This document shows, in pieces, positions 10,548 through 24,884 of a DNA stretch of 64,000 bases. This DNA is from Bdellovibrionales bacterium (GTDB lineage Bacteria; Bdellovibrionota; Bdellovibrionia; Bdellovibrionales; Bdellovibrionaceae), in assembly GCA_031370005.1 (NCBI GenBank), contig JANMPT010000003.1, forward strand, positions 16,229 through 80,228, in the 5' to 3' direction. Within the stretch, counting starts at the first letter, position 1; each line of letters starts with the position of its first letter. The position numbers and the translations under genes were made by a program. Below the pieces are notes generated by a model. It saw only the letters and a program-made list of their open reading frames with translations. It did no database searches and had not been told where the DNA came from.

Positions 10548-10558
10548 TCTATTGGAGA

Positions 10559-11194: not shown

Positions 11195-11450
11195 ATATGC
11201 TCCTTTAAATGGATGCAGCGATCCAATGAGTTGGAGAGCAAAATCTTTGCCAATTGACCATTGATTTAATTTGATTTGAGTCATTTAAAAACGTCTGAAC
11301 GCTCTTTGAAAGCCCTTTTGGGCCAGCCAGCGTCTAGAGCTTAGCCGCTCTATTTGGGAAAAGGATAAAAAAACAACTTAAACGCAACGCCTTTAGACTT
11401 TCAGTTTTTGTTAAATAATTCTAGTCTTAGCCCACCTCAAGGAGAACCAC

Positions 11451-11867: not shown

Positions 11868-11985
11868 ATGCTTGAATCTGTCAGCTAAGTTAAGACTAAA
11901 GTCTATTAAAGACAGCATAAAGCAGTAGCTTCCTAGGCAGAAAGCCCAAGCCAGCTTATTCTTGAGCCCACCAGGGGGCTTTTGA

Positions 11986-13653
11986 ATGAAGTTTTTGGTG
12001 ACCGCACTTTTGCTAATTTTTAGTCTTAAAATTTATGCAGTTTCTCCTGATTGGAGCGAAAAAGCTCCAATCCCCGTGGGTGCCAATCCCTATCAGTTTT
12101 CAGCAGATATCTTTCAACAGGTTCGTGATACCGGAAAAATCCATGCACAGATTTATCCTGTCATTGTAACTGGCATGCTTCCCCCATATGAGCCCACCCG
12201 TCATCTAATTGAAGACTCTTCAGCAAATCCTCTGCGTGAATTCCTGAACGCTCTCGTTCGTGGAGTTTCCGGTTATCATAGTATGGAAGACGTTCTTAAA
12301 GAACTTGGGCTTCATGAATATCCGAAAGCCACCGACCAAGGAGTTTATGCTGTCCCCTATCCTCAAGGAGTTCGCCCTGACCATCGAATGGGTTTCGGGC
12401 TCATTGACACTGAGCTAGGAACTGGATTTAGTTTTAGTTGCGCTGCTTGCCACTCCGCAAATCTCTTTGGAAAAACCGTTCTTGGCATGACAAACCGCTT
12501 TCCCCGAGCTAATGAGTTTTTTATTAAAGCCAAAAAGGCAAGCGAGTTCGTCCAACCAGCATTTTTTAAAGCCTATACAAATGCCACCAGCGGCGAAACT
12601 CAGATGTTAAAACAACTCAAACAAAATATAAAATCCATAGAAGTGAAGAAGCCCATCGCACTTGGCCTAGATACCTCGCTCGTTCAAGTAAGCCTCTCTT
12701 TAAATCACCGCAATAAAGATCCCTTTGCAACATTCAGTGAATTTTATGCATCAAACCCACGCCCTGACGCTATTTTAGATTCCGCTCCTGCAGATTCAAA
12801 ACCTGCCGTCTGGTGGAATTTAAAATATAAAAACCGCTGGCTCTCAGATGGCTCCGTTATCAGCGGCAATCCCATCGTGACCAACATCTTATGGAATGAA
12901 ATTGGCCGTGGTGCAGATCTTATGAAACTCGAATCTTGGTTGTTACAAAATGAAAAAATCATACAAGAAATCACGACGGCTGTTTTCTCTTCAGAAGCTC
13001 CGCGCTTCACGGATTTCTTCACTGCTGACAAAATAGATCTGGTAAAAGCCAAACAGGGTGAAGAGATTTTTAATAATGCATGCGCGCGCTGCCATGGTCA
13101 CTATGACAAGGCCTGGAGTCTTCCAAACGCAAATCAGCTAAGCCCCCTTGAAAAATTACAAACCATTGCAGTTCGCTATAAAACGCAAACTCAGGTTAAG
13201 GATGTGGGAACAGATCCCTACCGCTATCGCGGCATGAAATCACTTGAGCAGCTCAATGATCTTTCGATTCCTAAAAAAAATGGGGTTGTAGTGCGTGCTC
13301 AACAGGGCTATGTGCCTCCGCCCCTGGTGGGAATTTGGGCACGCTGGCCCTACTTTCACAACAACTCGGTGCCGAGTCTTTGCGCAGTCCTGAGTGCACA
13401 GAAAAATCGCCCGCAGTTTTATTATTCTGGCGAAGCTCAAGTACCTGAAACCGATTTTGATATTGACTGTAATGGTTATCCCTTAGGATCGAAGACTCCG
13501 AATAGTTGGAAAAATTCAAAGCATCTCTATGACACCCGCAAGATCGGGATGGGCAACCAAGGACATGATGAAGACATTTTCCTTGAAAAGGGCAGAGAGC
13601 TTCTTTCGCCGCAGCAAAAGAAAGCTCTCATTTACTTCTTACAAACTCTTTAG
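11986..13653 (+). CDS. di-haem cytochrome c peroxidase-like protein
   Basis: 555-aa exported ORF with two CXXCH haem-binding motifs (CAACH, CARCH). Also has a CCP/MauG-like segment PPPLVGIWARWPYFHNNSVPSL. Confidence 0.65.
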   Translation: MKFLVTALLLIFSLKIYAVSPDWSEKAPIPVGANPYQFSADIFQQVRDTGKIHAQIYPVIVTGMLPPYEPTRHLIEDSSANPLREFLNALVRGVSGYHSMEDVLKELGLHEYPKATDQGVYAVPYPQGVRPDHRMGFGLIDTELGTGFSFSCAACHSANLFGKTVLGMTNRFPRANEFFIKAKKASEFVQPAFFKAYTNATSGETQMLKQLKQNIKSIEVKKPIALGLDTSLVQVSLSLNHRNKDPFATFSEFYASNPRPDAILDSAPADSKPAVWWNLKYKNRWLSDGSVISGNPIVTNILWNEIGRGADLMKLESWLLQNEKIIQEITTAVFSSEAPRFTDFFTADKIDLVKAKQGEEIFNNACARCHGHYDKAWSLPNANQLSPLEKLQTIAVRYKTQTQVKDVGTDPYRYRGMKSLEQLNDLSIPKKNGVVVRAQQGYVPPPLVGIWARWPYFHNNSVPSLCAVLSAQKNRPQFYYSGEAQVPETDFDIDCNGYPLGSKTPNSWKNSKHLYDTRKIGMGNQGHDEDIFLEKGRELLSPQQKKALIYFLQTL

Positions 13654-13656
13654 AAT

Positions 13657-14766
13657 CTAAATGCTAGATAATAACTCTTCCAAGGCCGCTTGATCTTTCA
13701 CTCCGTGAAATTTCAAATCCACACGACGATTTTGCTGCATATCCTCTGGTAGCAAAGACTTATAACGCACTCCAGGGGGCTCCTGCCAGCTAGTTTGGAT
13801 TTTCTTCTTATCCAATCCTCCTTGCGTAAGTCGTTTTGAAACCTGTTCAGATCTTGCCTTAGAGATTTTCATGTTGCTTTGATCTGAGCCAGTTTGATCT
13901 GCAAAGCCTACGACTTCAACTTTTTGAAAAAGATCCGGCCTTTGAGAAAGTGCTTTGCCGAGCCTCTCAACATAATCTGCATTTATCCCCGTCAAAGTCA
14001 CACGACCTGGATCAAATTGCATATGCACATCATTTCTCATTGTCATCATGTTATCTTTTGGATCGCCCTCAATCACTCGCTGCGAATTAATTCCATAAGT
14101 CTCATCTGAGGCCATTTCACGTTTGGTTTCAACACTTGCTCTAGCGACCGGCGGCGCCTTCTGCTCGGAGCCAAAGCCCCATTGCAGATCCAGCATCACC
14201 GTACTAATGCTTGTGCTTGGGATACTAAGACTTGTTAAGCCTTTTAGACCCACGCGAAACATATTGGAATTATTTATTGGAATTTCCTTGATCAGTTGCA
14301 AGCCACCAAAAGTAGTAAGGTTCGGATCGCTGGAGCCATAACGGTCACCGCCCCCAATATAGCTATCTGCGGCCACACCGAACTGCCAACGATTCGCCCA
14401 ATTATATCTCCAGGCCAACTCTGCAAGTCCTCCAGAGATAAAATTATTTTGTGTATTACTTTTTTGCGTAAAACTATCACTCATAAAGCCTAATCCCGCA
14501 TCAAAAACATTATGCCTATCTTCGCTGAAATAAGACCCTATGACTTTCAGGTCCCCTGGCATCCCCTCGGTCTTCAAAGTATTATCTGAAGACATATACC
14601 CACTCGACAGTCCTATAAATGGGAACCACCCCACTGGATCATGAACGTTCATGGAGCCCATTTTGAACATGCCCATTGCTGAGGTTTGCGATTCTTCGGC
14701 CATTGTTGTTAGAGAAGCGAACAGACTTACTACAGTAAGAGATGTTGCCATTGTTTTTTTGAACAT
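13657..14766 (-). CDS. OmpA-family outer-membrane protein
   Basis: Start set at the ATG 14764-14766, behind an AAGGAGG RBS. Has a signal peptide, a beta-rich N-terminal part and a C-terminal OmpA-like domain (VEVVGFADQTGSDQSNMKISKARSEQV...NRRVDL). Confidence 0.8.
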   Translation of the reverse strand: MFKKTMATSLTVVSLFASLTTMAEESQTSAMGMFKMGSMNVHDPVGWFPFIGLSSGYMSSDNTLKTEGMPGDLKVIGSYFSEDRHNVFDAGLGFMSDSFTQKSNTQNNFISGGLAELAWRYNWANRWQFGVAADSYIGGGDRYGSSDPNLTTFGGLQLIKEIPINNSNMFRVGLKGLTSLSIPSTSISTVMLDLQWGFGSEQKAPPVARASVETKREMASDETYGINSQRVIEGDPKDNMMTMRNDVHMQFDPGRVTLTGINADYVERLGKALSQRPDLFQKVEVVGFADQTGSDQSNMKISKARSEQVSKRLTQGGLDKKKIQTSWQEPPGVRYKSLLPEDMQQNRRVDLKFHGVKDQAALEELLSSI

Positions 14767-15035
14767 AAAGTCCTCCTTTTGAATGGTCTTACGTATAGCC
14801 AAGTCCTGTGTAAGAACCGTGAAGGAAGTATGACAATTTCGAGATTAATACTAAAAAGGACATAAAAAAGTACTTTCCTTTTTTAAAGAGTGTCTTTGGC
14901 CATAAAAACGACCCAAGACCTCGACCTTGGAAGGAGCCAAATAAGGAGCAAGAGCCCAGCGAATTGAAACTTAATCAATTTTAGTAGGCTGCCGATAAGA
15001 CTCTAGAAGCAAAACCTAACAAAGGGGTATTATTT

Positions 15036-15344
15036 ATGGGTTTTAACCAACAATATGATGTTCCGGGTCTTTTTGACTTCCTCACAAACACTCCCGAGAC
15101 CGGTCTCAGAAAAATGCTGGTTGATAATAAAACTTTCACAGACGTTCATTTTAGTCTCATGATGAAAGTTGTTCGTACATGTGATGAAACAAAATTCTGC
15201 GAACACACCGAAAAAACAGATTTTCCAAAGGTAAAATTTGGAGCAGCTGAAATCAAACTCAAAGAAAAATTCTGGAATGACTGCTTTACTTGTCTTTCAA
15301 GCAAAGGCCTTCTGAATCCAGCTCAGAAAAAGCATGCAGCTTAA
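15036..15344 (+). CDS. hypothetical protein
   Basis: 102-aa ORF with no recognisable family. It is the last ORF before tRNA-Leu. Confidence 0.35.
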   Translation: MGFNQQYDVPGLFDFLTNTPETGLRKMLVDNKTFTDVHFSLMMKVVRTCDETKFCEHTEKTDFPKVKFGAAEIKLKEKFWNDCFTCLSSKGLLNPAQKKHAA

Positions 15345-15365
15345 ACGATCATAAACTCCCATCGC

Positions 15366-15451
15366 GCGCGGGTGGTGAAATGGTAGACACGCAGGTCTCA
15401 GAAGCCTGTGGCCGAAAGGCTGTGGGGGTTCAAGTCCCCCCTCGCGCACCA
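15366..15451 (+). tRNA. tRNA-Leu (anticodon CAG), class II with long variable arm
   Basis: Hand-folded: acceptor GCGCGGG/CTCGCGC (one G-U pair), D-arm GTG-AAATGGTAGA-CAC, anticodon stem CAGGT/GCCTG with loop CTCAGAA. Variable arm is TGGCCGAAAGGCTGT, T-arm is GGGGG-TTCAAGT-CCCCC, discriminator is A and the CCA is encoded. Confidence 0.9.
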
Positions 15452-17127
15452 ATACCTACAGTACTCGAGCCGGCACGGGTTTGAGGAAATGGGATCACAG
15501 AACCTTCTTTTTTCAAATTTATAGAAATTCCATCGGTGCCGGTTGCTTTGAAGGGTGACGAAGTTTCTTCATCTTGTGGAGTTTCTGCGCCCTTTGCGGG
15601 CGCATACATTCCAATTTTGATTTTGGTTGGCTGAATCTCGATAAATTTAATCAGGTTTGCGAAAATCGGTCTTTGATTTTCAGGCTCTGAAATCTCAAGT
15701 CTATTAATAGTCTGCTTAATCCTATCTTTAAGACCATCTTCGTTAATTTGCTCAGACATAATCTGCATCGATTGAGATCTGAGTTTTTCTTTCGCAAATT
15801 TCAAATCGGCGAGCTTCACATTCAATTGTTTGATCTGCTCGTAGAATTGATCGGCGGGAAGATCTGCCGGCAACTCTGAAACTCTTTGCACAAGATTTGT
15901 GATCTTCTTGGCCGTTGTTTGAATTTCCGTGTCCATCACCTTTTGACGTGATTGCATCTCAGGCCAGTCACTTATGGACTTTTCTTTGTAAATGGCAATC
16001 CACTTTTCTATAAGGCCAGGTTCATTGAGAAGTTGTTTTAAGGACTTTAAAACAATCTCCTCTAACCGGTAAGCTCTCACGTTCTTGACCTGGCATTTAG
16101 GTTTTAGCTCCTGGGCCAGCGGATTCTTGATCTGCGAATGCCCATAGTAAAAATGCTTTTCTTTCCGGCCAATGCCGGATTTCCCACCCATAGCTTTGCC
16201 ACACTCACTGCATTGAATGAGTTCCGTCAGTGGAAAGGCATGATTTTTCCAGTCCTCAGGTTTATATTTATTTTTGTTCTTATGAAGGCGCTCTTGTACT
16301 TTGTTAAAAAAGGCTTCCTCGATGATTGGTTTCCAAACGGCAGAGACCAGCTCTCGATTTCCGTCAACATGAGCCACTTCGCGCTTTCCTAGGTAAATGG
16401 GGTTTGTCAAAAGACTTTGCAGAGTGTCCACGGTAAAAACATTACCGCCCTTATCAAGGCCGTGCTTGTTGGTGTACTTTTTGTTAAAGATTCCTTCTTT
16501 AATCAATCTGATTTGGGTCTTTCGGACTGATCCTTCCTCTATAAAAGTCTCAAATATTTTTATAACATCTGCCGATTCAAGATCGTTAATGAGCAGTTCA
16601 CCTTTGTTCTTGGGGTTTCGGTCATATCCTAGGGGGATGCTTCCACCGTTCCAAAGGCCACGTTTTGCCCGGCTAAGCCAGTTGGCAGAAATTCTCTCAG
16701 CGGTTTGTTTGCGCTCGTACTGGGCATAATTTATGAGGTTAAAAACCATCATCTCGCCCGATGCAGTTGTGGTATCAAAAGATTCTCGAAGGGTGATGAA
16801 GCTGGCCTGATGCTTTTTTAACAGATCCCTGATGTCACAAAAATCACGAATATTACGGGATAAACGGGACAGCTCAGTTGCCAAAATCAAATTCACACGG
16901 CCGCCCTGGACGTCGGCTAGCATTCTTCTGAACTCAGGCCGATTCATATCTTTGGCAGATCTACCTTCGTCACAATAGAATTCTACAATGTGACCCCAGT
17001 TGGCCTTGAGCTTGTTTTGATATTCCACATACTCAACAATTCGATTTTTCTGCGAGACCAGGGAGCCATCTACAATTCTGGCCTGCTCTTCCGTCGATAC
17101 CCGAATGTACACTCCGCAACGCTTCAT
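15430..17127 (-). CDS. large serine recombinase (resolvase/invertase catalytic domain, recombinase domain, zinc ribbon, coiled coil)
   Basis: 565-aa ORF with an N-terminal catalytic motif (GVYIRVSTEEQ) and LSRLSRN. Has a recombinase-domain region, a Cys cluster (CSECGKAMGG...C) and a long helical C-terminal part. The last ~7 codons and the stop lie inside the tRNA-Leu gene. Confidence 0.9.
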   Translation of the reverse strand: MKRCGVYIRVSTEEQARIVDGSLVSQKNRIVEYVEYQNKLKANWGHIVEFYCDEGRSAKDMNRPEFRRMLADVQGGRVNLILATELSRLSRNIRDFCDIRDLLKKHQASFITLRESFDTTTASGEMMVFNLINYAQYERKQTAERISANWLSRAKRGLWNGGSIPLGYDRNPKNKGELLINDLESADVIKIFETFIEEGSVRKTQIRLIKEGIFNKKYTNKHGLDKGGNVFTVDTLQSLLTNPIYLGKREVAHVDGNRELVSAVWKPIIEEAFFNKVQERLHKNKNKYKPEDWKNHAFPLTELIQCSECGKAMGGKSGIGRKEKHFYYGHSQIKNPLAQELKPKCQVKNVRAYRLEEIVLKSLKQLLNEPGLIEKWIAIYKEKSISDWPEMQSRQKVMDTEIQTTAKKITNLVQRVSELPADLPADQFYEQIKQLNVKLADLKFAKEKLRSQSMQIMSEQINEDGLKDRIKQTINRLEISEPENQRPIFANLIKFIEIQPTKIKIGMYAPAKGAETPQDEETSSPFKATGTDGISINLKKEGSVIPFPQTRAGSSTVGIGARGGT

Positions 17128-17318
17128 GCGACCTCGCTTTCGATAAAGTCCTTTTGAATGGCCTCAGTTTTATCATGGTCATTGCCCATTTCAAGTAGGC
17201 ATTTTATGACGCGAGCTACGCGCTCGTTATAATCTTCCTCAGTTATTTTAATCTTCACGACCGCCACATTTTCTTCGTAAACGTAATCATTTTTAGAACC
17301 CATTATTTTAATCCCCAC
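17124..17318 (-). CDS. small hypothetical protein translationally coupled to the recombinase
   Basis: 64-aa ORF with a GTG start; an alternative ATG lies at 17301-17303. Its TGA stop overlaps the recombinase ATG (ATGA overlap at 17124-17127). No family recognised. Confidence 0.4.
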   Translation of the reverse strand: MGIKIMGSKNDYVYEENVAVVKIKITEEDYNERVARVIKCLLEMGNDHDKTEAIQKDFIESEVA

Positions 17319-17398
17319 ATACCAATCACCTCCCGGCTCAAGTTTTATTTTTCAAATTTTCATGCCTCCGTTTTTCCTTTCTTCGTTTTCAGTTTTAG

Positions 17399-18388
17399 TT
17401 ATCCACATTTCTCATAACCCCTCTCCGTCACATCTTTATCAGTCCCAGATCCCTCTTCTCCGGCCACAGCTTCTGACCCCAGTCCACCTTTCGTTGGGGG
17501 AGTGGGGTCAGAAGCGATCAGTGGCCGGTTCCCAGGTTCTGTTTTTTCTGAATTTATTTGTGATGGAGAGGGGTTATCTGCAATTTCCGCGTTCAAATTT
17601 TGGTCGGCTTTGTTGCTCACCCCTTGAGTAGCTTTGTTTCCCTCTGATTTCCACACATCAAAGGCCAATTCGCCAAATGAGACAAAGCGGCTATCTTTTA
17701 AAAAGAAAACTTTTGAGTCTCTTTTATTCTTAAAAAAGTCATTAAGGTGGCTCACAAAGATATGCTGCCGATCATTTCTAAAACTTTGCTTTTGCCAACC
17801 GGCTTTAAGTGCATGGACAAGGCCCTTGTCTTTGATGAAGTACCAAATAATATCAATACGGTTTTTGTCAGCGTACTCAGTGAATGTTTCCCGGTATCTC
17901 AAGTGGCTTTTCTGAGTAAGCTCTAGCTCCACCGCAATCACCAAAGCTTTGCCATTCATCATCTCCGCCATGAGCCCATCTGGGATGATTTTGTTACGGG
18001 CTTTTTTATAATCATGTCTGAAAGCTCCTGCCTTCATGACACATTCGGAAGTCCACTCAAGGCCAAGATTCATTGCCTCAAAGGCAAGTCTCAAGTCATT
18101 CAAAAGCACATCATGTTCAATGGTGTTGCGGTTTGAAAATTTAAATGAGTCTTCTAAACCGAGAAGTCTTCGGCCGCCAACATCAAGCCGCCAGGTGTTT
18201 GTGCCATTCTTTAATGTCACTCCGCGAGAGATAAAACGCCCTTCCTCTAAAAGGCGCAGCCGCTTCATGACAGTGGTGTGGGCAACACCCTTAAAAAAGA
18301 GAGCCCCAATTTGACGAGTCGAGAGGACTCCAAATTTATAAATACTGGCAATAATTTCTTTGTCCCTTGCCTGTAACTTCATCCCCAA
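17399..18388 (-). CDS. replication-relaxation (Replic_Relax-like) family protein
   Basis: 329-aa ORF with an N-terminal winged-helix-like segment (RDKEIIASIYKFGVLSTRQIGALFF...TVMKRLRLLEEGRFI). It is followed by IEHD...IPDG...AVELELTQKS, a nuclease-fold-like motif pattern of this family, and has a low-complexity acidic/Pro-rich tail. Confidence 0.65.
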   Translation of the reverse strand: MGMKLQARDKEIIASIYKFGVLSTRQIGALFFKGVAHTTVMKRLRLLEEGRFISRGVTLKNGTNTWRLDVGGRRLLGLEDSFKFSNRNTIEHDVLLNDLRLAFEAMNLGLEWTSECVMKAGAFRHDYKKARNKIIPDGLMAEMMNGKALVIAVELELTQKSHLRYRETFTEYADKNRIDIIWYFIKDKGLVHALKAGWQKQSFRNDRQHIFVSHLNDFFKNKRDSKVFFLKDSRFVSFGELAFDVWKSEGNKATQGVSNKADQNLNAEIADNPSPSQINSEKTEPGNRPLIASDPTPPTKGGLGSEAVAGEEGSGTDKDVTERGYEKCG

Positions 18389-18987
18389 TGTCCTTTGATG
18401 ATTTCATTGATGGCTTTTTTGCTCACGACTTTAAGACTTTTCTCGTGAGCTTGACGGGCCAGCTCCTCGGAAATCTTGCGCTCATATTCAACCTCCTGGG
18501 CCTTCAGAATTTCCAACTGCTTCGCCTCATACTTTTTACGGCGTTCATTGGCCGCAGTGATTTTGGCTTGTTCCATCTGCTGACGCTGTTCTTCCGGCAA
18601 AGCCATATAGGCATTTTCTTTTTCAATTCGCCCCAACTCAATCCGCTGAAGAATAGCCTGGCATTCCAGTTCATCCAGCTCGGCTTGGGTGAGACGCTTT
18701 TCTTCGGCCAATTGCTTTTGCTTGTGGGTCCAATTATTCAAAAAGAATTTCAAGGCAGGGGTAGAAATCAGAAATAGAAAAAATAGGCCAGCGCAGATCA
18801 GGCAAAGGTAAACTGCATTGACCTCCATGCGCCATAGAGGCCCAACAAGACCATCCCAAAGGAAATGGCCCCTGTGATCAAGACCACTGATCCAAAAGCC
18901 CCAACGAAGCACGTTAAAGAGAAATACACACATGCCCAGTTTTATTAAGAGCACTTTCTCAAAATTTTTTATAGGCACCTCCCTCAT
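18379..18987 (-). CDS. hypothetical membrane protein with C-terminal coiled coil
   Basis: 202-aa ORF with two to three hydrophobic helices, then a charged heptad-like region (KQKQLAEEKRLTQAELDELECQAILQRIELGRIEKEN...). Its stop overlaps the next ORF's start by 10 nt. Confidence 0.45.
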   Translation of the reverse strand: MREVPIKNFEKVLLIKLGMCVFLFNVLRWGFWISGLDHRGHFLWDGLVGPLWRMEVNAVYLCLICAGLFFLFLISTPALKFFLNNWTHKQKQLAEEKRLTQAELDELECQAILQRIELGRIEKENAYMALPEEQRQQMEQAKITAANERRKKYEAKQLEILKAQEVEYERKISEELARQAHEKSLKVVSKKAINEIIKGHWG

Positions 18988-18989
18988 TT

Positions 18990-19056
18990 AAAAATCACTC
19001 GCTTCTCATAGGTAATATCAAAAACGATGCCGTATTCGTGTCGCAGAGTGATTTTT
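18990..19056. promoter_or_regulatory. 11-bp inverted repeat (AAAAATCACTC ... GAGTGATTTTT) immediately upstream of the module's first ORF
   Basis: The arms at 18990-19000 and 19046-19056 are exact reverse complements. The proximal arm lies 3 nt from the ATG at 18985-18987. Confidence 0.4.
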
Positions 19057-19112
19057 CTATAAGCCTTTGTTTTCAAGACACAAAAATGATTTCCATACTT
19101 TTTGTGGCCCGC

Positions 19113-19140
19113 TTTAAGTGACGAAACTTCGTCACTTAAA
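19113..19140. repeat. perfect 28-bp palindrome containing TGACGAA-NN-TTCGTCA (copy 1 of 3)
   Basis: TTTAAGTGACGAA-ac-TTCGTCACTTAAA, with 13-bp arms that are exact reverse complements. Confidence 0.9.
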
Positions 19141-19217
19141 ATTTAGGCTCGCCCTCGGTTTTGAACCTCAATTGAATCAATTCACCAACTTAGCAACGAC
19201 GAGACCTCGACACGATT

Positions 19218-19233
19218 TGACGAACATTCGTCG
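19218..19233. repeat. TGACGAA-NN-TTCGTC(g) palindrome (copy 2 of 3)
   Basis: TGACGAA-ca-TTCGTCg has the same half-sites and spacing as copies 1 and 3, with one terminal mismatch. Confidence 0.85.
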
Positions 19234-19308
19234 CACACGACTTTTTAAAATTGCAAGGCCATGCCAGCATGACCGAAAAGTGATTTAAGTTTTGGGAAAC
19301 TCAAACGA

Positions 19309-19330
19309 ATATTGAGATCCATCTCAATAT
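19309..19330. repeat. perfect palindrome ATATTGAGAT-cc-ATCTCAATAT
   Basis: The 10-bp arms are exact reverse complements. Confidence 0.9.
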
Positions 19331-19340
19331 GATAGGGCTG

Positions 19341-19367
19341 AAAAGTTTCAAATAATTTGAAACTTTT
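19341..19367. repeat. perfect 27-bp palindrome AAAAGTTTCAAAT-a-ATTTGAAACTTTT
   Basis: The 13-bp arms are exact reverse complements. The TTTCAAAT core recurs in the next inverted repeat. Confidence 0.9.
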
Positions 19368-19402
19368 TTTTGGGTCTTGAATGAAATCATAGACTTGAGT
19401 CA

Positions 19403-19438
19403 TTTCAAATTTCTTGAAGACTTTCAGGAAATTTGAAA
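19403..19438. repeat. inverted repeat TTTCAAATTTC - 14 nt - GAAATTTGAAA
   Basis: The 11-bp arms at 19403-19413 and 19428-19438 are exact reverse complements. They share the TTTCAAAT core with the 19341-19367 palindrome. Confidence 0.85.
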
Positions 19439-19465
19439 CCTCAAGCTCTGGCTGGGTTTTTCGGG

Positions 19466-19481
19466 TGACGAAATTTCGTCA
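19466..19481. repeat. perfect palindrome TGACGAA-at-TTCGTCA (copy 3 of 3)
   Basis: TGACGAAATTTCGTCA is self-complementary over 16 bp. Confidence 0.9.
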
Positions 19482-19596
19482 TTTCAGAGGTCGACTTTAC
19501 CGGTAATCGCAGTGGGTATAAGTGCTTAAAATTGTTGAGGTAAATCGGCTACGTTTTTAGACTAAAATTTCGATGCCGATGAAATCAATTTATCCG

Positions 19597-19624
19597 TGGG
19601 GTTCGAATCCCTCCCTCTCCGCCA
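19597..19624 (+). pseudogene. orphan tRNA 3' fragment (T-arm, acceptor 3' strand, G discriminator and CCA; tRNA-Ser-like)
   Basis: TGGGG-TTCGAAT-CCCTC-CCTCTCC-G-CCA. The ...CTCTCCGCCA end resembles bacterial tRNA-Ser. No complementary GGAGAGG 5' strand, D-arm or anticodon arm lies within 100 nt upstream. Confidence 0.7.
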
Positions 19625-19718
19625 TTTCCGAAAGTCTGGTTGTGAAAGGCGACCTCAATAAGGACGGTTGGGAATAAACCCTCGGGGGAATAAAGAAGAG
19701 AGCAAGCCCAAACGGCCG

Positions 19719-20585
19719 TCACAATAGTGATGAAAGATTTTCGGTAAGAAATTTTTTAAATGAAATAGCATCTCGCTTCAAAATATCGGAAACCACAGAT
19801 GTTGGTTTAGAGAACTGGCCATTTGCGATGTTCTCACCCAGTTTCGTGAGATCGCTTGCCAACCAAGCGGGATATCCCATAGCAGTTAGCCCCTGCACGA
19901 GTTGTTGAGAAGGCATGTTTACATAATTTATTTCTCTTTTTAAAAGTGAAGTTAGCGCCTCTGCCGCATCGCTGAACGAAATCGCCTCACTTCCCGAGAT
20001 CACATAAGTTTTTCCCGCGTGACCGTTTTCCTGAAGGCAGGCGACGGCTACTGCGGCAATGTCGCGAGCATCAACCATTGCGAGTAAACCATCACTATAA
20101 TTTCCATACACTGCATTCTGTGATTTAATCGCCCCAGCCTGTGCAATGAAGTTCTGCATAAAAAAATAGGGTTGCAGGATTGAAAATGAAATTTCAGAGT
20201 TTTTTAGGTAATCGTCAGCTTTGGCATGCTGTTGTGCTTGTGATATTGGAGAATCCTTACTTGCTCCAGCCCCGGAAAGCATAACGATTCGCCTTACGCC
20301 AACCTTTTTAGCAACATCAATAGCATTTTTCTTCAATTCAGCTTCATTTTGAGTAGGGGGTGCCAACAAAAAAAGCCTTTCAATTCCGGTGAGTGCTTTT
20401 TCCAGGCTAGACAAATCCTCTAAATCCCCAGTTACCGCTTCGATATTGAGTTCCTCCGCCATCTTCGCGGATTTGGAACTGCGAGAAAGCATTTTTGTTT
20501 GAATATGCGATTTAGAAAGTTGTTTGAGAACCTCGATTCCAACTTTGCCCGTACCGCCAATAACGAGAATCATATTACGCTCCAT
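19719..20585 (-). CDS. NmrA-family / atypical SDR NAD(P)-binding oxidoreductase
   Basis: 288-aa ORF with an N-terminal Rossmann motif (ILVIGGTGKVG) and NmrA-like length and layout. Confidence 0.75.
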   Translation of the reverse strand: MERNMILVIGGTGKVGIEVLKQLSKSHIQTKMLSRSSKSAKMAEELNIEAVTGDLEDLSSLEKALTGIERLFLLAPPTQNEAELKKNAIDVAKKVGVRRIVMLSGAGASKDSPISQAQQHAKADDYLKNSEISFSILQPYFFMQNFIAQAGAIKSQNAVYGNYSDGLLAMVDARDIAAVAVACLQENGHAGKTYVISGSEAISFSDAAEALTSLLKREINYVNMPSQQLVQGLTAMGYPAWLASDLTKLGENIANGQFSKPTSVVSDILKRDAISFKKFLTENLSSLL

Positions 20586-20600
20586 CTTGCTAATGTGGGT

Positions 20601-21041
20601 TTAAGTCAGAAGCTTGTGCAACTTCTCAAATGAGCTTTCCCAGCCATGGGTGTGGCCGGAGCAATCCTTTTCATCAATGAATCCAGTTTGACTAAGCGTG
20701 ATTTCAGTCCCATCAGCTACTTTTCGAAATTCAACTGTCACCGTTGTGTGTGGCGCGGGACCTCTCCAAGTACCTGTGCAATCAAATACAAGGCGCTCAT
20801 TTGGAACAATTTCCATGTAGGTGCCAGACATGTTGCCGGTAGTCTGTTGGCCACGCATCTCTCCTTCCATAGAAATAACAAATTTTCCGCCCACTTTAAA
20901 ATCAACTTGGACCTCAGGAATTGATAATGTTCCCGGAGCAAACCAGCTTTTTAGTAAATTTGGGCTTTTCCAAGCATCAAAAACTTTCTCCGGGGACGCC
21001 TTTATCGTCTTTTTCATTTGTACTTTAATGTTTGGGTTCAT
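20601..21041 (-). CDS. SRPBCC (AHSA1/START-like) domain protein
   Basis: Start moved to the ATG 21039-21041, behind a GGAGGAG RBS. The sequence IKASPEKVFDAWKSPNLLKSWFAPG...GGKF...ERLVF...GTEITL is typical of Aha1-like SRPBCC proteins, which are commonly paired with ArsR regulators. Confidence 0.7.
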   Translation of the reverse strand: MNPNIKVQMKKTIKASPEKVFDAWKSPNLLKSWFAPGTLSIPEVQVDFKVGGKFVISMEGEMRGQQTTGNMSGTYMEIVPNERLVFDCTGTWRGPAPHTTVTVEFRKVADGTEITLSQTGFIDEKDCSGHTHGWESSFEKLHKLLT

Positions 21042-21369
21042 GTTTTTTCTCCTCCAAAAGTTCTTGAAGCGCGTCCAAACGATTGCCCCAAAATTGTTGA
21101 TAATATGAAATCCATTGATCTGCCGTCTTAAGAGTCTCGGCATTGAGACTGACAATCTGATAACTGCCCTCTTTTTTCCTGTCGATTAACTTTGCGTTCT
21201 CAAGCACCTTGAGATGCTTCGATACAGCCGCTAAAGACATTGTAAATGGCTTGGCAATTTCGCTCACGGTTTTTTGCTTCTTCGATATGCCTCGCATTAT
21301 GGAGCGACGAGTAGAATCTGCCAAAGCATGAAAAATTAGGTCTAATTGTCCTATTTCAGATTTAACCAT
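21025..21369 (-). CDS. ArsR/SmtB-family transcriptional regulator
   Basis: 114-aa ORF. FHALADSTRRSIMRGISKKQKTVSEIAKPFTMSLAAVSKHLKVLENAKLI is the ArsR winged-helix signature. Confidence 0.85.
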   Translation of the reverse strand: MVKSEIGQLDLIFHALADSTRRSIMRGISKKQKTVSEIAKPFTMSLAAVSKHLKVLENAKLIDRKKEGSYQIVSLNAETLKTADQWISYYQQFWGNRLDALQELLEEKKHEPKH

Positions 21370-21415
21370 ATGGTTTAATGATAACAGATTCTACTATAGA
21401 GTCAACCATTTGGTT
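21361..21415. promoter_or_regulatory. two AACCA/TGGTT-type palindromes at the arsR start (candidate ArsR operators)
   Basis: TTTAACCAT-ATGGTTTAA (21361-21378, one mismatch) overlaps the start codon. AACCA-tt-TGGTT lies at 21404-21415. Confidence 0.35.
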
Positions 21416-21566
21416 AAATCATTGAAAAGGTTCGGAATTAATCGAGCTCTCGGAAATAATCTCAGAATTCAGCATTGGGCATTACCGGACAGAAGTGCCA
21501 CCCAAGTTACTCTTTTAAAGAAAATCGAGAGCGAATTAAGATTTGCGCTTTTTTCCCCAATCGTAC

Positions 21567-22048
21567 ATGGCATCCAATATCGGTCGAAGGCTCCTGCCTG
21601 AATCCGTCTTCTATTTTTATTTGTTTCTCAAGCCTTTGCCCAGAATATCCCGACCGAGTCTCCGGTGCTTGAGGATGTGATCATCAACTCGATGAGCGTC
21701 ACTTACCCTTCTCCTTATAAGATTTCGATGGCAACTTATCTTGGACAAGCTCCGAAATATCGGCAGACGGCTACATATAATTGTGGACTGAGTGCACGCA
21801 ACGGCTATGACCTCTGGTGCTGGGGATTTTCTGGGGGCGGCGCCCAATTGCGTATGTTTCCAGATTTGGGAATCGATTCGAAAAATTTGCGCCTTCCCCC
21901 CGAGTCAGGGAACACCTTTGCCCGTATGAATACGACCAAGACCAATTGCGAGAAAATGCAACAGGATCTTGCAAATGCGAGCTCAGAGAAACAATTTGTT
22001 CTCCGCGTTTATGGCAACAGAAGCTTTACTTTAACTCCACGGCCTTAA
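21567..22048 (+). pseudogene. possible frameshifted gene for a small exported protein
   Basis: ATG at 21567 opens MASNIGRRLLPESVFYFYLF in one frame. The neighbouring frame reads IRLLFLFVSQAFA-QNIPTESPV and continues into the 127-aa ORF 21665-22048. The two frames meet at the T-rich run 21611-21623. Confidence 0.3.
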
Positions 22049-22063
22049 ACGAAGTTGCAACCC

Positions 22064-22306
22064 CTATGCTTTCTTTCTAAAAACGGTCTGCTCAAGCTTT
22101 TCTAGACGGTCCTCTACAGAGTCATGGGACTCAATAGATTTTCTGAGAAACCAATTTAAGAAGGTTTGGTATCCCATTCCTTGTTTCTCGCCCTCAGATT
22201 CCAACCATTCAATGACCTCAGCATCAAGCCGAAAAGTCTTGATGACTTTGATGTCTTTTGCTTTTTTACCCCTTTTTGCCTTTGAGAAATCATATTCATT
22301 TTTCAT
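22064..22306 (-). CDS. brnA: BrnA-family antitoxin
   Basis: 80-aa ORF. KTFRLDAEVIEWLESEGEKQGMGYQTFLNWFLR matches the BrnA pattern. Lies directly downstream of the BrnT-like ORF. Confidence 0.8.
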   Translation of the reverse strand: MKNEYDFSKAKRGKKAKDIKVIKTFRLDAEVIEWLESEGEKQGMGYQTFLNWFLRKSIESHDSVEDRLEKLEQTVFRKKA

Positions 22307-22309
22307 AAC

Positions 22310-22588
22310 TCACCTCGAAAGATATTGGTTTGACTCGGTTTTGGTGGCTGGTCTTGCAGAGATAATTCGGACCCGCTCACCCTCAATTTTTTCACAATAA
22401 ACAACCACTAACAAATTGGCCTTTCGTGATATCCCCAGCCTAAGCCATCTCTCTTCATCATGAGAGTGTTCTGGGTCTGGAGTTTCTAGGGCAGAATTAT
22501 CAAGCCAAATGGTTATTGCCTCAGAAAAGCGAATCCCATGCTTTTTATAGTTGCTGTCTGCCTTGGTGTCGTCCCACTCAAAGTCCAT
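22310..22588 (-). CDS. brnT: BrnT-family (DUF497) toxin
   Basis: 92-aa ORF. FEWDDTKADSNYKKHGIRFSEA...DEERW...VRIISARPATKTE is the BrnT signature. Confidence 0.85.
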   Translation of the reverse strand: MDFEWDDTKADSNYKKHGIRFSEAITIWLDNSALETPDPEHSHDEERWLRLGISRKANLLVVVYCEKIEGERVRIISARPATKTESNQYLSR

Positions 22589-22637
22589 AATTCACTATAT
22601 TATATTGTTATTACTTTGTAAATACATTTTTAAAATC

Positions 22638-22877
22638 TCATATAGTTGGTTTTAAAGCGTTTTGCCGCACAAAGGCCTCTGAAGCCCCAATGGCCCTCGC
22701 TGTTTTCCCGGAATTCCCATATTTCTTGATAAGCGTCAGCAGGTCGGCCGGCAAAAGGGCCTTCGGCTCCGCAACAACCTCAAATTCAGCTTGAAACACC
22801 GGCTCAGATCGAAATAAAGTGCTCGCAGAGATGGCGAGCGGTTCGTCTACTTCGGTGACTTTGGCACCATTTAACAT
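22638..22877 (-). CDS. small hypothetical protein with C-terminal HTH-like segment
   Basis: 79-aa ORF. The C-terminus LIKKYGNSGKTARAIGASEAFVRQN looks like a Fis/resolvase-type HTH. A degenerate second copy of its 3' end lies at 24443-24489. Confidence 0.35.
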   Translation of the reverse strand: MLNGAKVTEVDEPLAISASTLFRSEPVFQAEFEVVAEPKALLPADLLTLIKKYGNSGKTARAIGASEAFVRQNALKPTI

Positions 22878-22892
22878 TTTCAGTCACTTGTA

Positions 22893-22934
22893 CCAATACG
22901 GCGAATGGCTTTTTCAATTCAAATTCAATACTTA
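22893..22934. repeat. 42-bp perfect direct repeat, copy 1
   Basis: CCAATACGGCGAATGGCTTTTTCAATTCAAATTCAATACTTA is identical to 24490-24531. Confidence 0.95.
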
Positions 22935-23027
22935 CACCCTTCTAGCCCCTGATATACGTTGGACATATTTACGACGGCTTTCGAAGTGCCGAGGGGCAAA
23001 TGGCTAAGAAAGGCAGTGTAATTGATT

Positions 23028-23225
23028 TTAACGCCATTCATAGTGTCCCATGTGAGGTGTTTTTTTCAAATGTAATTTAAGGCCGTTGATATCTTGCTCA
23101 AGTTCAAGAAACTTTCGGTCCGCGAACTCTTGAGACTGCTCAAGGTTGTGAGTGTAAAGCCAGAATGCAGCCTCTTCTAGCTCAGCTTTGAACTTGTCGG
23201 ATTCGAGGATTTCAAATGCTTGCAT
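23028..23225 (-). CDS. ParE/RelE-like toxin, apparently only the N-terminal helical hairpin (possibly truncated)
   Basis: 65-aa ORF that starts directly after the stop of the Phd/YefM-like ORF. The helical N-terminus (KFKAELEEAAFWLYTHN...FLELEQDINGL...PHMG) resembles ParE-type toxins, but the beta-sheet core is missing. Confidence 0.45.
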   Translation of the reverse strand: MQAFEILESDKFKAELEEAAFWLYTHNLEQSQEFADRKFLELEQDINGLKLHLKKTPHMGHYEWR

Positions 23226-23528
23226 TTAGCCGACGGCTTTCTTCGTTCTCTTTGCATTGAGGGCTCGTGTTTTGGCGCGATTCAAAGTGTCCTTTGTCGA
23301 TTGGTCCGTGACACGACTCACTCGTCCTTGAGCAATATCAACAAGGCCAACAGTCAGCCCATGCAGCCTAGCAAGATCGAGCTGCATTTTCTCAAAAACG
23401 TCGGCATTAAGAAGAACGAAGGCTTCCCCAGATTTTCGAGTGATTTTAACAGGCTCAACCCTTGCGGCTTCCATCCACTCTTTCATATTTGATCTGAAGT
23501 CATTGGCATTTGTTCTGTCCATAGACAC
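23226..23528 (-). CDS. Phd/YefM-family antitoxin
   Basis: 100-aa ORF. The N-terminus NANDFRSNMKEWMEAARVEPVKITRKSGEAFVLLNADVFEKM is typical of Phd/YefM. AGGAGG RBS upstream. Confidence 0.8.
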   Translation of the reverse strand: MSMDRTNANDFRSNMKEWMEAARVEPVKITRKSGEAFVLLNADVFEKMQLDLARLHGLTVGLVDIAQGRVSRVTDQSTKDTLNRAKTRALNAKRTKKAVG

Positions 23529-23543
23529 CTCCTATTCTTAAAT

Positions 23544-23561
23544 AGTACACTTAACCGTACT
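23544..23561. promoter_or_regulatory. AGTAC-N8-GTACT inverted repeat upstream of the Phd/YefM-like gene (candidate operator)
   Basis: AGTACacttaaccGTACT lies 16-33 nt upstream of the ATG. GTAC-containing palindromes are the known operator type for YefM-class antitoxins. Confidence 0.4.
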
Positions 23562-23751
23562 GTTAGCCAAGATGCTATTTTATCAGAAAAGTACCGTGTC
23601 TTGACTGGTAAAGCGAATACAACGTGATTGCATCCACTGTATAGGATACGTTTTATCCATTGCCAGAGGTTCTTCTAGCCTACGGCCGTGGGCACCACTG
23701 ATTTTCGGGTCCACCCCGAAGACATAGGGAACACTTTTCGGTATCTGCGGT

Positions 23752-24063
23752 TTAGCTCGCCTTAGAAAAACTAAAACCAAACTCAAAGTGACCACCACAA
23801 GCGGCCGCTATGCGAGCCAACAGCGGAATAGACGGCACTCGCTTATCAGAACCACCCTCAAGTCTTGCAATCACACTTTGAGTCGTTCCAATCAGTTTAG
23901 CTAATTGAGCCTGAGTTAAGTCAGCTTTCATGCGCGCAGCTCTAACCGCATGCGCGATTTCAGTTTTAGATTTTTCTTCTTCAAACTGAATACGAACTTC
24001 TTTGTCTTTTAATATTTTTTGAAAAAATGGCTTTGCTGATTTGTATGATTTTTTATTTTTCAT
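23752..24063 (-). CDS. higA: XRE-family HTH antitoxin (HigA-like)
   Basis: 103-aa ORF with an HTH (LTQAQLAKLIGTTQSVIARLEGG). Its start overlaps the stop of the upstream toxin ORF by 4 nt. Confidence 0.8.
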   Translation of the reverse strand: MKNKKSYKSAKPFFQKILKDKEVRIQFEEEKSKTEIAHAVRAARMKADLTQAQLAKLIGTTQSVIARLEGGSDKRVPSIPLLARIAAACGGHFEFGFSFSKAS

Positions 24064-24395
24064 AATCCTAAAACCTCTTTCATTCTTTTTTCAGCGATTT
24101 CAAGATCGCCCGTTGGTGTTTTCTGAGTTTTCTTTTTAAAAGCATGAAGCCAAACCATCGTATTTGTTTCAACAACAACATAGGCTATGCGGTAGCTGCC
24201 GCTTGGTGTATTAAACTTTACTTCCCAGAGTTTACCGCGAAGCTGCCTAAACTGAACACGCGGACAACCTAATCCATATTTTTCAATACCTTCAAAGACA
24301 TCAGCAAAACGTGCTTGATCTGCTTTTGGCAGATCACTGATAAAATCTTCGATTGGGCTTCGTCCTGACGACGTTTCGTAAAGAGCTACTTTCAC
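24060..24395 (-). CDS. higB: HigB / phage Gp49-like RelE-superfamily toxin
   Basis: 111-aa ORF. GKLWEVKF...YRIAYVV...VWLHAFKKKTQKTPTGDLEIAEKRMKE is the Gp49/HigB pattern. The toxin-first gene order is typical of HigBA. Confidence 0.8.
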   Translation of the reverse strand: MKVALYETSSGRSPIEDFISDLPKADQARFADVFEGIEKYGLGCPRVQFRQLRGKLWEVKFNTPSGSYRIAYVVVETNTMVWLHAFKKKTQKTPTGDLEIAEKRMKEVLGL

Positions 24396-24397
24396 AC

Positions 24398-24427
24398 CCT
24401 TAATATAGCCAAAAGGCTATATTAAGG
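24398..24427. promoter_or_regulatory. perfect 13-bp-arm palindrome directly upstream of higB (candidate operator)
   Basis: CCTTAATATAGCC-aaaa-GGCTATATTAAGG begins 3 nt upstream of the higB ATG. Confidence 0.55.
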
Positions 24428-24489
24428 CAAGATTTTTTTAATTTAGCTATTCTGCCCTACAAAGGCCTGACTAGCGCCGACCGTGTCAG

Positions 24490-24531
24490 CCAATACGGCG
24501 AATGGCTTTTTCAATTCAAATTCAATACTTA
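24490..24531. repeat. 42-bp perfect direct repeat, copy 2
   Basis: Identical to 22893-22934. It is preceded (24453-24489) by a shortened relative of the 3' end of ORF 22638-22877. Confidence 0.95.
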
Positions 24532-24884
24532 AGCCATTTAATATTGGGTTAGGAGAGTACATTATCACCCTCGACAATTTCTCGGAGCACATTTTGGGCA
24601 GCAATGACGTCGGACTCTGGGGTCCAATAGTCTTCGTAGCAGAGACAGTTCGCGCAGTGCGAATTTGCAAAACAGCTGCTGATACAATCAAGGCATTTTA
24701 AGTGGCTATTTTGCTATGAATAGTTGTGAATTTGTATAGACAATAAATATCAAGTAAAATCATATGGTTATATTATAACTGTATAATATAACATTCAAAA
24801 TATCGTTAATTGGCCATTATATTAGTCATTATTTAGTTAGCTTATTTTGATGTGAATAATATAGTTGCCAAAACGCCAGTAATT

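Follow-up and report, generated by a model that had tools for sequence, protein, structure and literature searches.

The best described systems that resemble the locus analyzed here are the integrative mobilizable elements (IMEs) of streptococci in which a MOB_C relaxase is combined with a serine recombinase (Coluzzi et al. 2017, PMC5357655; PMC5704250). These elements are small, carry their own integrase and a PF13814-type protein, lack mating-pore genes, bear a variable cargo, and are expected to hold their origin of transfer (oriT) in the noncoding DNA beside the mobilization genes. PF13814 is the MOB_C relaxase domain, found for instance in TraX of pAD1 and MobC of CloDF13 (PMC5357655, PMC12857230, PMC6736028). 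MOB_C relaxases are restriction-endonuclease-like proteins with an N-terminal winged helix-turn-helix (wHTH) domain that form no covalent adduct (PMC12857230, PMC6736028), and the way in which they hand DNA over to a secretion system is unresolved (PMC12857230). Their oriT is made of inverted-repeat DNA, with separate relaxase-binding repeats located tens of base pairs (bp) away (PMC12857230, PMC6736028). Here, we analyzed a contig segment of 64,000 nucleotides (nt) from a Bdellovibrionales bacterium (hereafter the window), and within it the palindrome-rich interval 18988-19596, which lies inside an element of 7,418 bp (window 15452-22869). This element has the gene content of an IME, namely, its own integrase, a relaxase-type gene, defined attachment (att) ends, and no mating-pore or coupling genes, as no type IV secretion system or coupling-protein gene is annotated within its 7.4 kb. 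The family to which it belongs differs from the streptococcal IMEs in being found in Bdellovibrionota-type genomes and metagenome-assembled genomes (MAGs) rather than in Firmicutes, in having a relaxase related to theirs at the profile level only, and in residing at the CCA ends of many tRNA genes with an attP embedded in the open reading frame (ORF) of the recombinase; its mobilization is putative.

With only slightly better than even confidence, we consider that the interval is the internal leader of this integrative, probably mobilizable, element, combining a promoter/operator region with oriT, and that its right part is a scar. A previous interpretation made from the letters alone (hereafter the sequence-only reading) had taken the whole stretch to be the cis-acting control, replication, or transfer region of a recombinase element. 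The stretch does belong to such an element and is the cis-acting leader of a recombinase/relaxase element; the replication part finds no support, as neither iterons nor other origin features were found. Nor is the interval a single unit: it is composite, for the core shared with the closest relative (L001, inserted at a tRNA-Arg gene and with 85-94% protein identity to the window element) stops at 19441, dyad A3 and everything to its right being absent from L001. The features on which the argument relies are the following (15556-15571 lies outside the interval).

18988-19718: whole gap between the cargo genes and the gene for p202, the first gene of the core operon
18988-19441: AT-rich leader of the core operon (36.8% GC vs 43% for the window), candidate promoter/operator and oriT
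19113-19140: perfect 13-2-13 palindrome of 28 bp around dyad A1, TTTAAGTGACGAA-AC-TTCGTCACTTAAA
19119-19134: dyad A1, TGACGAA-NN-TTCGTCA, perfect
19198-19256: near-invariant block of 59 nt with dyad A2
19218-19233: dyad A2, TGACGAA-NN-TTCGTCA with one mismatch
19309-19330: perfect 10-2-10 palindrome, ATATTGAGAT-CC-ATCTCAATAT
19341-19367: palindrome B1, perfect 13-1-13 of 27 bp built on a TTTCAAAT core; a T8 run comes next on the + strand
19379-19439: invariant block with hairpin B2 and its left flank, best candidate for oriT (nic region)
19403-19438: hairpin B2, with 16-nt arms, one mismatch, and a 4-nt loop, at the core/cargo boundary
19442-19595: segment absent from L001, with dyad A3
19466-19481: dyad A3, TGACGAA-NN-TTCGTCA, perfect
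19596-19624, + strand: orphan tRNA-Ser 3' end (T-arm, acceptor, and CCA) at the right edge of the interval, ...GGTTCGAATCCCTCCCTCTCCGCCA
15556-15571: fourth dyad, TGACGAA-NN-TTC(T)TCA, ~105 bp away from attL and inside the 3' coding end of the recombinase gene

The leader (18988-19441) lies directly upstream of an operon that encodes p202, a relaxase-like protein, a 64-aa protein, and the recombinase. It is 80% identical to its counterpart in L001 (363/454 positions, i.e. about 20% divergence), when the synonymous sites of the flanking genes have diverged by 37-51% (pS 0.37-0.51), so that this DNA is itself under purifying selection; the idea that the stretch functions as DNA is thus borne out for its left ~450 bp, which evolve more slowly than synonymous sites. 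The homology with L001 runs from the tRNA junction to window position 19441, where it stops abruptly at the outer edge of hairpin B2. The constraint is not evenly distributed along the leader. The block 19379-19439 is identical to L001 at 61/61 positions, and in the block 19198-19256 the only differences are those in the A2 dyad spacer, the runs 19198-19223 and 19227-19256 being identical. The perfect palindromes that strike the eye most are, by comparison, not kept as palindromes in L001: one arm of the 19113-19140 palindrome is degenerate there, the 19309-19330 palindrome is not conserved, and palindrome B1 retains its 9-1-9 core without the outer arms. The constraint bears on the 19403-19438 and 19218 blocks instead. 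Folded as single-stranded DNA, the B2 block reaches -15.1 kcal/mol (z = -4.1) and the B1-B2 region -24.7 kcal/mol (z = -5.7). A comparable situation is found in another pair of relatives, L017 and L021, which share a 193-nt block of 100% identity upstream of the small-protein gene when their genes are about 85% identical; this block occupies a position equivalent to that of the hairpin block, the L021 contig ends at its outer edge, and it contains a classic GC hairpin followed by a T-run. More generally, every relative has at least ~230 bp of noncoding DNA upstream of the small-protein/relaxase operon, and some have a palindrome of their own at the equivalent position (a perfect 13-2-13 in L014, a 9-2-9 in L007, and a related type in L006 and L015).

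These observations have also to be confronted with a purely transcriptional explanation, according to which the dyads are operators, the AT-rich hairpins are terminators or insulators standing between the cargo and core operons, and oriT, if there is any, lies elsewhere. All the protein genes of the element lie on the minus strand, so the gap must both end the transcription of the cargo and start or regulate that of the core; palindrome B1 is followed by its T8 run, the L017/L021 invariant block has its GC hairpin and T-run, and the single lineage-specific palindromes of the relatives, with arms of 9-13 bp and located ~100-270 bp upstream of the small gene, would fit autoregulatory operators. 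Moreover, the most conserved core DNA (17090-17420) is found outside the leader. However, hairpin B2 has no T-run on the operon strand and yet sits in the 61 nt where the leader is under the strongest constraint, a terminator scan returned nothing in the gap, and a relaxase element needs an oriT in cis, the leader being the largest conserved noncoding DNA beside the relaxase operon. On this basis, we regard transcriptional control as the sole function of the leader as rather unlikely, albeit as the alternative to be taken most seriously.

With regard to the repeats themselves, all the palindromes described in the sequence-only reading were found where it had placed them. Two of them needed redrawing: the inverted repeat at 19403-19438, described with 11-bp arms, has the 16-nt arms listed above, and the repeat 18990-19000/19046-19056, also given as 11 bp long, extends to 18 nt with 83% complementarity. 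Two features had been overlooked, namely, the fourth dyad at 15556-15571, the counterpart of which in L001 is a perfect palindrome, and the tRNA-Ser-like 3' end at 19596-19624. The clustering of palindromes far exceeds chance. Allowing at most two mismatches, the dyad pattern occurs 5 times in the 64 kb against 0.30 expected, a count reached in 0/100 shuffles, and 3 of the 7 perfect palindromes of the whole window (arms of at least 9, loop of at most 4) fall within 255 bp (19113-19367), shuffled sequences yielding 0-4 such palindromes per 64 kb. The three dyads of the interval are its sole family of direct repeats, with spacings of 99 and 248 bp and no tandem array. Shortly beyond the element are two other long perfect palindromes, at 24398-24427 (13-4-13) and 24767-24792 (11-4-11). 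The first adjoins the beginning of a Gp49/HigB-like toxin gene (24395), and both are probably toxin-antitoxin operators. Toxin-antitoxin genes are crowded together in the stretch 22870-24700, possibly the remnant of another island.

Could the region then be nothing specific, i.e. a set of dispersed repeats of the repetitive extragenic palindromic (REP) type, or a small conserved gene for a protein or an RNA? The latter finds some ground in two small ORFs (56 aa on the + strand and 52 aa on the - strand) that are open in L001 over 56 and 37 codons, respectively. Their differences from L001 are spread as 11/10/9 and 11/9/5 over the three codon positions, with no third-position bias, and their ratios of nonsynonymous to synonymous divergence (dN/dS) are 0.95 and 2.4, when real genes of the element range from 0.04 to 0.26; a hidden small gene in the gap is ruled out by these values, in keeping with the initial description of the stretch as noncoding and devoid of any ORF of at least 60 aa (the longest has 56 aa). 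As for dispersed repeats, the good copies of the dyad in the 64-kb window are all inside the element, the long palindromes are clustered there, and neither has a match in plasmid and phage collections, so REP-like repeats, which had been named as the finding that would overturn the sequence-only reading, do not account for them. Plasmid and phage records have no DNA similarity to the region apart from the tRNA fragment, nor was resemblance to any known oriT found in them, and Rfam searched at a permissive threshold returned spurious miRNA-type hairpin matches and the tRNA fragment only, hence no known RNA family. We thus grant this possibility very little probability.

The second line of evidence comes from the product of the relaxase-like gene. 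The core genes and the cargo are arranged as follows.

17124-17318, - strand: 64-aa acidic protein, candidate recombination directionality factor by position
17399-18388, - strand: Replic_Relax/MOB_C-type relaxase-like protein of 329 aa, with an N-terminal wHTH and a PD-(D/E)xK-like domain
18379-18987, - strand: p202, a membrane/coiled-coil protein of 202 aa, encoded by the gene that opens the core operon
19719-22588, - strand: cargo, by Pfam an NmrA-like reductase, SRPBCC/AHSA1, ArsR, then a BrnT/BrnA toxin-antitoxin pair

The 329-aa protein matches PF13814 over residues 14-174 with 35.5 bits against a gathering cut-off of 25.3. In an alignment of 12 homologues, H92-D93, P136-D137-G138, E154, E156, K160, Y165, Y172, and Y183 are invariant, which supplies both the D-E-E acidic metal site of the PD-(D/E)xK type and a conserved tyrosine. 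The AlphaFold2 model has a pLDDT of about 90 over residues 1-247, and its residues 1-75 superpose on the wHTH domains of MarR, PadR, and HpaR with a root-mean-square deviation of 2-3 Å and a probability of 1.00. The profile match and the model together suggest a MOB_C-type protein with a wHTH domain. As in TraX and MobC (PMC12857230, PMC6736028), a wHTH and an endonuclease-like domain would be associated with acidic metal-binding residues and a conserved tyrosine; unlike in pAD1 and CloDF13, the DNA of the region has no plasmid similarity, the protein has no BLAST-level match in plasmids, and nicking is putative. We also note that its C-terminus (17399-17560) is a disordered tail with a conserved (A/S)xDPxPPT...GG...KKCG motif at the extreme end, conceivably a secretion or recruitment signal. 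The p202 slot is syntenic with the relaxase gene in all relatives, with a dN/dS of 0.11 relative to L001. The 64-aa protein has no Pfam match, and its slot is occupied in L008 by an HTH_17 protein beside a tyrosine integrase.

The name of the Pfam family, which refers to plasmid replication as well as relaxation (PMC3424549), invites another hypothesis, in which the leader would be a vegetative replication origin, the excised circle behaving as a plasmid with the Replic_Relax protein as initiator acting on the dyads and hairpins. The AT-richness of the leader (36.8% GC) and the presence of several repeated dyads that look like binding sites are compatible with it. Conversely, the region has no tandem iterons, no family of direct repeats apart from the dyads, and no DnaA-box-like or other origin feature that we noted, partition and copy-control genes are missing, the short contigs of the relatives are linear and represent pieces of integrated copies, not closed circles, and PF13814 proteins are now classed as MOB_C relaxases (PMC5357655, PMC12857230). 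A replication origin is therefore improbable in our view.

The leader has the features by which an oriT is sought: it is adjacent to the relaxase operon, noncoding, conserved, and provided with an inverted repeat. Following the transfer reading, the recombinase, possibly aided by the 64-aa protein, would excise the element, the wHTH/PD-(D/E)xK relaxase-like protein would assemble on the leader and nick it at or near the invariant hairpin block, which would be oriT, and a helper conjugative system would export the nicked circle. The TGACGAA dyads (7-2-7) would serve as operators through which a dimeric DNA-binding protein specific to the lineage regulates the core operon. The wHTH of the relaxase, put forward in the sequence-only reading as a candidate binder, is not favored in this role, nor is the C-terminal HTH of the recombinase, because both are near-invariant across lineages that lack these dyads, the dyads being lineage-specific. 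The 64-aa protein is acidic. Two candidates were also considered individually and disfavored: the ArsR protein, encoded in a cargo that L001 lacks while retaining the dyads, and, for the recombinase, its C-terminal HTH, as L004 has the same recognition helix and no such dyads.

Several observations weigh against this account of the leader as promoter, operator, and oriT. The NCBIfam MobC model NF041423 gives 32.4 bits for the relaxase-like protein against a cut-off of 200, and tblastn of this protein against 72,556 plasmids (PLSDB) returns no match at E <= 1e-3, so we regard it as a distant MOB_C branch related to known members at the profile level only; Foldseek does not confirm a nuclease fold, its best nuclease match being a weak one to FokI. 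TraX, a characterized MOB_C relaxase, binds direct repeats (five of them), when the repeats of the window are dyads (PMC12857230). The leaders of L004, L017, L003, and L008 have no comparable palindromes, and the sole motifs common to the leaders of ten lineages are A/T tracts within the shuffled range, although the HTH of the relaxase is near-invariant. A sigma-70 promoter scan returned nothing on the operon strand; a sigma-54-like TGGCAT-N-TTGCA at ~19255-19270, checked by hand, has a spacing 1 nt too short. Finally, the most conserved DNA of the core is a stretch of ~330 bp at 17090-17420, with 93-98% identity to L001, that takes in the 64-aa gene (96% nt identity, pS 0.08 when neighbouring genes have 0.37-0.51), the start of the recombinase gene, and the 80 nt that follow the relaxase gene, so that oriT could lie there. 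No palindromes were found in this segment, the conservation of which may reflect a hidden cis site or a recent recombination tract.

The limits of the element provide the framework in which the interval has to be placed, and rest on the following features.

15366-15451, + strand: tRNA-Leu(CAG) (ARAGORN, Rfam); the B arm of attB/attL is formed by its 3' end, from the T-arm up to the CCA
15430-17127, - strand: large serine recombinase in its integrated, C-truncated form of 565 aa (Resolvase, Recombinase, and Zn_ribbon_recom)
15452-15475, + strand: P' arm of attP, on the element side of attL, ATACCTACAGTACTCGAGCCGGCACG
22638-22877, - strand: detached recombinase C-terminus of ~76 codons, called as a 79-aa ORF, HTH-like
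22842-22869, + strand: P arm of attP, on the element side of attR, forming the right end, TTCGTCTACTTCGGTGACTTTGGCACCA

On the left, the tRNA-Leu(CAG) gene converges on and overlaps the recombinase gene, the last few codons of which are read from the complement of the tRNA. The P' arm next to the tRNA CCA is conserved in the window, L001, L004, L006, L011, L013, L017, and L021, with a CTCG/TTCG motif located 23 nt from the inferred centre. On the right, the end is given by the comparison of L017 with L019, which are 99.7% identical from one exact point to their tRNA-Phe and 89% identical beyond it; the break coincides with a 28-nt arm that reads, in tRNA orientation, TTCGCCTAC...CCCACCA. The corresponding pattern TTCGnCTAC-N14-CnCCA has a single perfect match in the window, at 22842-22869, where ~0.14 are expected with at most one mismatch, and every relative of sufficient length likewise has a single match, invariably on the far side of the core and in constant orientation. 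Because this arm is unique, occurs once per relative, and sits at the L017/L019 break, we place the ends of the element at 15452 and 22869. The two arms of attP form an imperfect inverted repeat, GG(T/C)TCG(T/A)(C/G)TAC, with TCG 23 nt from a centre that lies in the GC of GCACCA, when the T-loop motif TTCA/TTCG of attB, i.e. of the tRNA, lies 18 nt from this centre. The resulting 5-bp offset agrees with the rule that attB has the motif read by the zinc ribbon of serine integrases 5 bp nearer to the centre than attP does (Rutherford et al. 2013, PMC3783163). Natural contiguous attP sites with both arms exist in L024 and L025; for the window, the predicted rejoined attP is ...GACTTTGGCACCA+ATACCTACAGTAC... 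and the predicted empty attB is tRNA-Leu ...GCGCACCA+TTTAACATTTTCAG....

The system is in this respect close to the model of the Listeria A118/LI integrases (PMC3783163), which likewise involves an attP with imperfect inverted repeats, a ZD-type motif 5 bp nearer to the centre in attB, no long flanking direct repeats, and a small adjacent gene as a possible recombination directionality factor; it departs from it in that the distal motif of attB is the T-loop/T-stem of a tRNA, the crossover takes place at the acceptor end, and attP is located in the coding sequence of the integrase. The serine-recombinase copies all end 0-3 nt past the CCA of tRNA-Leu(CAG), Arg(ACG), Leu(TAA), Ser(GCT), or Phe(GAA) genes, where each has a conserved arm of the form CC(T/A)ACAGTACTCGA(A/G)CCGGCACG or a recognizable variant. 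This variety of targets (Leu, Arg, Ser, and Phe) would follow from the distal motif of attB being the universally conserved T-loop/T-stem, and the tRNA is left intact because the crossover occurs at its acceptor end. Neither direct repeats flanking the element nor a repeat of the tRNA 3' end were found, and scanning by Hamming distance for the P' arm in inverted orientation gave nothing useful. A crossover inside the tRNA, with a new 3' end supplied by the element, was rejected, as the distal fragments mismatch the target tRNA. An empty site or a circular contig of the element was sought through the flanking host proteins and none was found (the flanking Phd-like protein is not on record), nor did Logan contigs give a junction. 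We note that the L001 flank past the P arm resembles a degenerate P' arm.

These limits bear directly on a third alternative, in which the palindromes are attachment or accessory sites of the recombinase and the element ends in or near the interval. That 19441, where the L001 homology breaks off, coincides with the edge of hairpin B2, that a tRNA 3' fragment follows at 19596-19624, and that one dyad is found ~105 bp from attL would all fit such a view, and 19441 was at first taken as the end of the element because the L001 homology stops there. This end is refuted by the distal HTH ORF and the P arm at 22.6-22.9 kb, common to L001, L003, and L016 and located beyond cargos that differ. Furthermore, attL at 15452 and attR at 22869 have lineage-conserved arms with the correct half-site geometry, the recombinase frame is restored only by joining these two ends, in agreement with unsplit proteins, and the tRNA-Ser fragment has the 23-nt geometry of attB rather than the 28-nt geometry of the P arm, which led to its rejection as a P arm of attP. 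The sites of the recombinase being at 15452 and 22869, the interval is not its recombination site, and an attachment function of the palindromes appears very improbable.

The right end also reveals an unusual property of the recombinase, whose profiles PF00239, PF07508, and PF13408 are all above their cut-offs. The detached fragment, with an HTH-like ...EPKALLPxDL...IGASEAFVRQ motif, evolves as coding sequence (dN/dS 0.26, differences of 18/16/32 over the codon positions), and homologues of the 79-aa ORF are found on the far side of differing cargos in L001, L003, and L016. When the ends are joined in silico, a single ORF is restored in 4 independent elements (the window, L001, L004, and L017/19), adding 70-84 residues to the ~565 aa of the recombinase, and the database proteins P0018, P0023, and P0030 are unbroken across the junction. 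Most other recombinases, like the window copy, end 3-5 residues past ...GIGA. Since the joined ends restore the frame, unsplit proteins exist, and attP is contiguous in L024 and L025, we conclude that attP lies inside the recombinase ORF; as judged from these comparisons, integration appears to split off a C-terminal HTH-like domain of ~75 aa. In a limited search of the literature, a split of the integrase gene by its own attP was found for archaeal SSV-type tyrosine integrases only, not for serine recombinases. The SSV-type integrases (PMC7253208, PMC8371274) similarly have the site in the integrase ORF and parts of the gene at both ends of the element; they differ in belonging to the tyrosine superfamily and to another domain of life, and, in the present case, only the last ~75 codons are detached, leaving the catalytic and DNA-binding domains of the recombinase intact. 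As a side observation, L024 (3147-4426) is a decayed copy consisting of the last 202 aa of a recombinase with an intact attP inside, followed by a gene for a 224-aa small resolvase.

The right part of the interval has a different history from that of the leader. The orphan tRNA-Ser 3' end is near-identical to the 3' end of a true tRNA-Ser(GCT) in a related locus and is the sole orphan T-arm module in any locus. The 11 nt that follow its CCA (to 19635) match the start of the P' arm of five lineages at 7-8/11 positions, for a background rate of 1.1%, and the segment 19442-19595 bears a weak resemblance to the A2-to-A1 part of the leader taken in inverted orientation (local alignment z = 4.4); the sequence 19442-19720 has no similarity to recombinase 3' ends beyond the dyad itself. 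We tentatively interpret 19596-19635, from its sequence, as an internal attL-like scar, left when an element resident in a tRNA-Ser gene became joined to the present core and brought in the cargo; L001 has a different cargo, made of RHH/PIN and a 224-aa ORF. It has to be counted against this part of our interpretation that the fusion is argued from an 8/11 match (p about 0.01) and from the z = 4.4 alignment. A GTTGAGGT at 19536-19543, ~90 nt upstream of the orphan CCA, matches the 5' acceptor start of tRNA-Ser (GGAGAGGT) at 6/8 positions; it is at roughly the right distance, but the intervening sequence is not tRNA-like and the match is probably due to chance. As Askora and colleagues are said to have reported in 2011, RSM-type filamentous phages of Ralstonia integrate at tRNA-Ser via a small serine recombinase. 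The orphan fragment of the window matches a tRNA-Ser-like stretch in 77 RSM-type phage records, and these phages share with the window element a serine recombinase acting at the 3' end of a tRNA gene. Unlike these filamentous phages with their small resolvase-type enzyme, the window element is a relaxase-bearing island, and the similarity is one of tRNA sequence alone.

Some further observations concern assemblies and remnants. In an independent assembly of the same organism (Logan, SRR20217173), contig L009 corresponds to window 19600-22922 and contig L010 to ~9760-15410; the breaks fall inside tRNA-Leu (15410), exactly in the T-loop of the orphan tRNA-Ser (19600), and 53 nt past attR (22922), which suggests repeats or population heterogeneity at these points. 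Tandem or remnant arrangements comparable to the putative tRNA-Ser scar are seen in other loci, among them the L001 flank mentioned above. In L017, two distal att (P) arms of ~80% identity (2519-2548 and 3769-3796) flank an extra module of 1.2 kb with a 330-aa ORF that L019 does not have, and this looks like tandem accretion at the distal end. In L012 (1667-1995), a full tRNA-Leu(TAG) has its 3' end repeated 180 nt further on, where the repeat is joined to a recombinase-side arm with no recombinase gene behind it; this is an insertion that has decayed and in which the tRNA end is duplicated.

The family is small. The Replic_Relax protein has 15 detectable relatives among 5.8 billion proteins, one of them in Bacteriovorax stolpii, to which a DNA scan of genomes added further copies in Bdellovibrionales-type MAGs and a metagenome scan ten more loci. 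The order small protein/relaxase/small protein/serine recombinase is conserved among relatives. The locus of B. stolpii (L008, CP030035.1, 7527-10682) associates this small-protein/relaxase core with an HTH_17 gene and a tyrosine integrase, which take the last two places of the order, at tRNA-Leu(TAA), from which it follows that the integration module has been swapped within the family; the cargo is there of the defence type (SNF2 helicase, methyltransferase, and HATPase).

Taken by itself, the interval is of a fairly ordinary kind, a leader serving regulation or transfer in a small integrative element, and it offers a defined target in a poorly known branch of relaxases. The element family, for its part, is new among integrative mobilizable elements in taking tRNA T-arms as its target and in splitting the gene of its own serine recombinase. 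A broader scenario, which we find somewhat doubtful and put forward tentatively, would combine a recombinase that reads the T-arm and can thereby use almost any tRNA CCA end, an isoform switch brought about by the location of attP in the ORF, and a hairpin that is both the nic site and a breakpoint of shuffling. Integration would detach, and excision restore, the ~75-aa domain, so that the two isoforms would report the integrated or excised state, and the shuffling of core and cargo between co-resident elements at the hairpin would explain both the break at 19441 and the tRNA-Ser/attL scar. What emerges is a compact family of serine-integrase elements in genomes of the predatory-bacteria type, which insert at many tRNA genes without damage, the invariant tRNA T-arm being part of the target, and whose integrase gene is split, and would be rejoined, by its own reaction. 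Its integrases would be natural examples of enzymes whose target motif is well defined and widely available, a property of interest for integrase engineering, and, if the two isoforms differ in directionality, these elements would carry a self-contained switch of their integration state.

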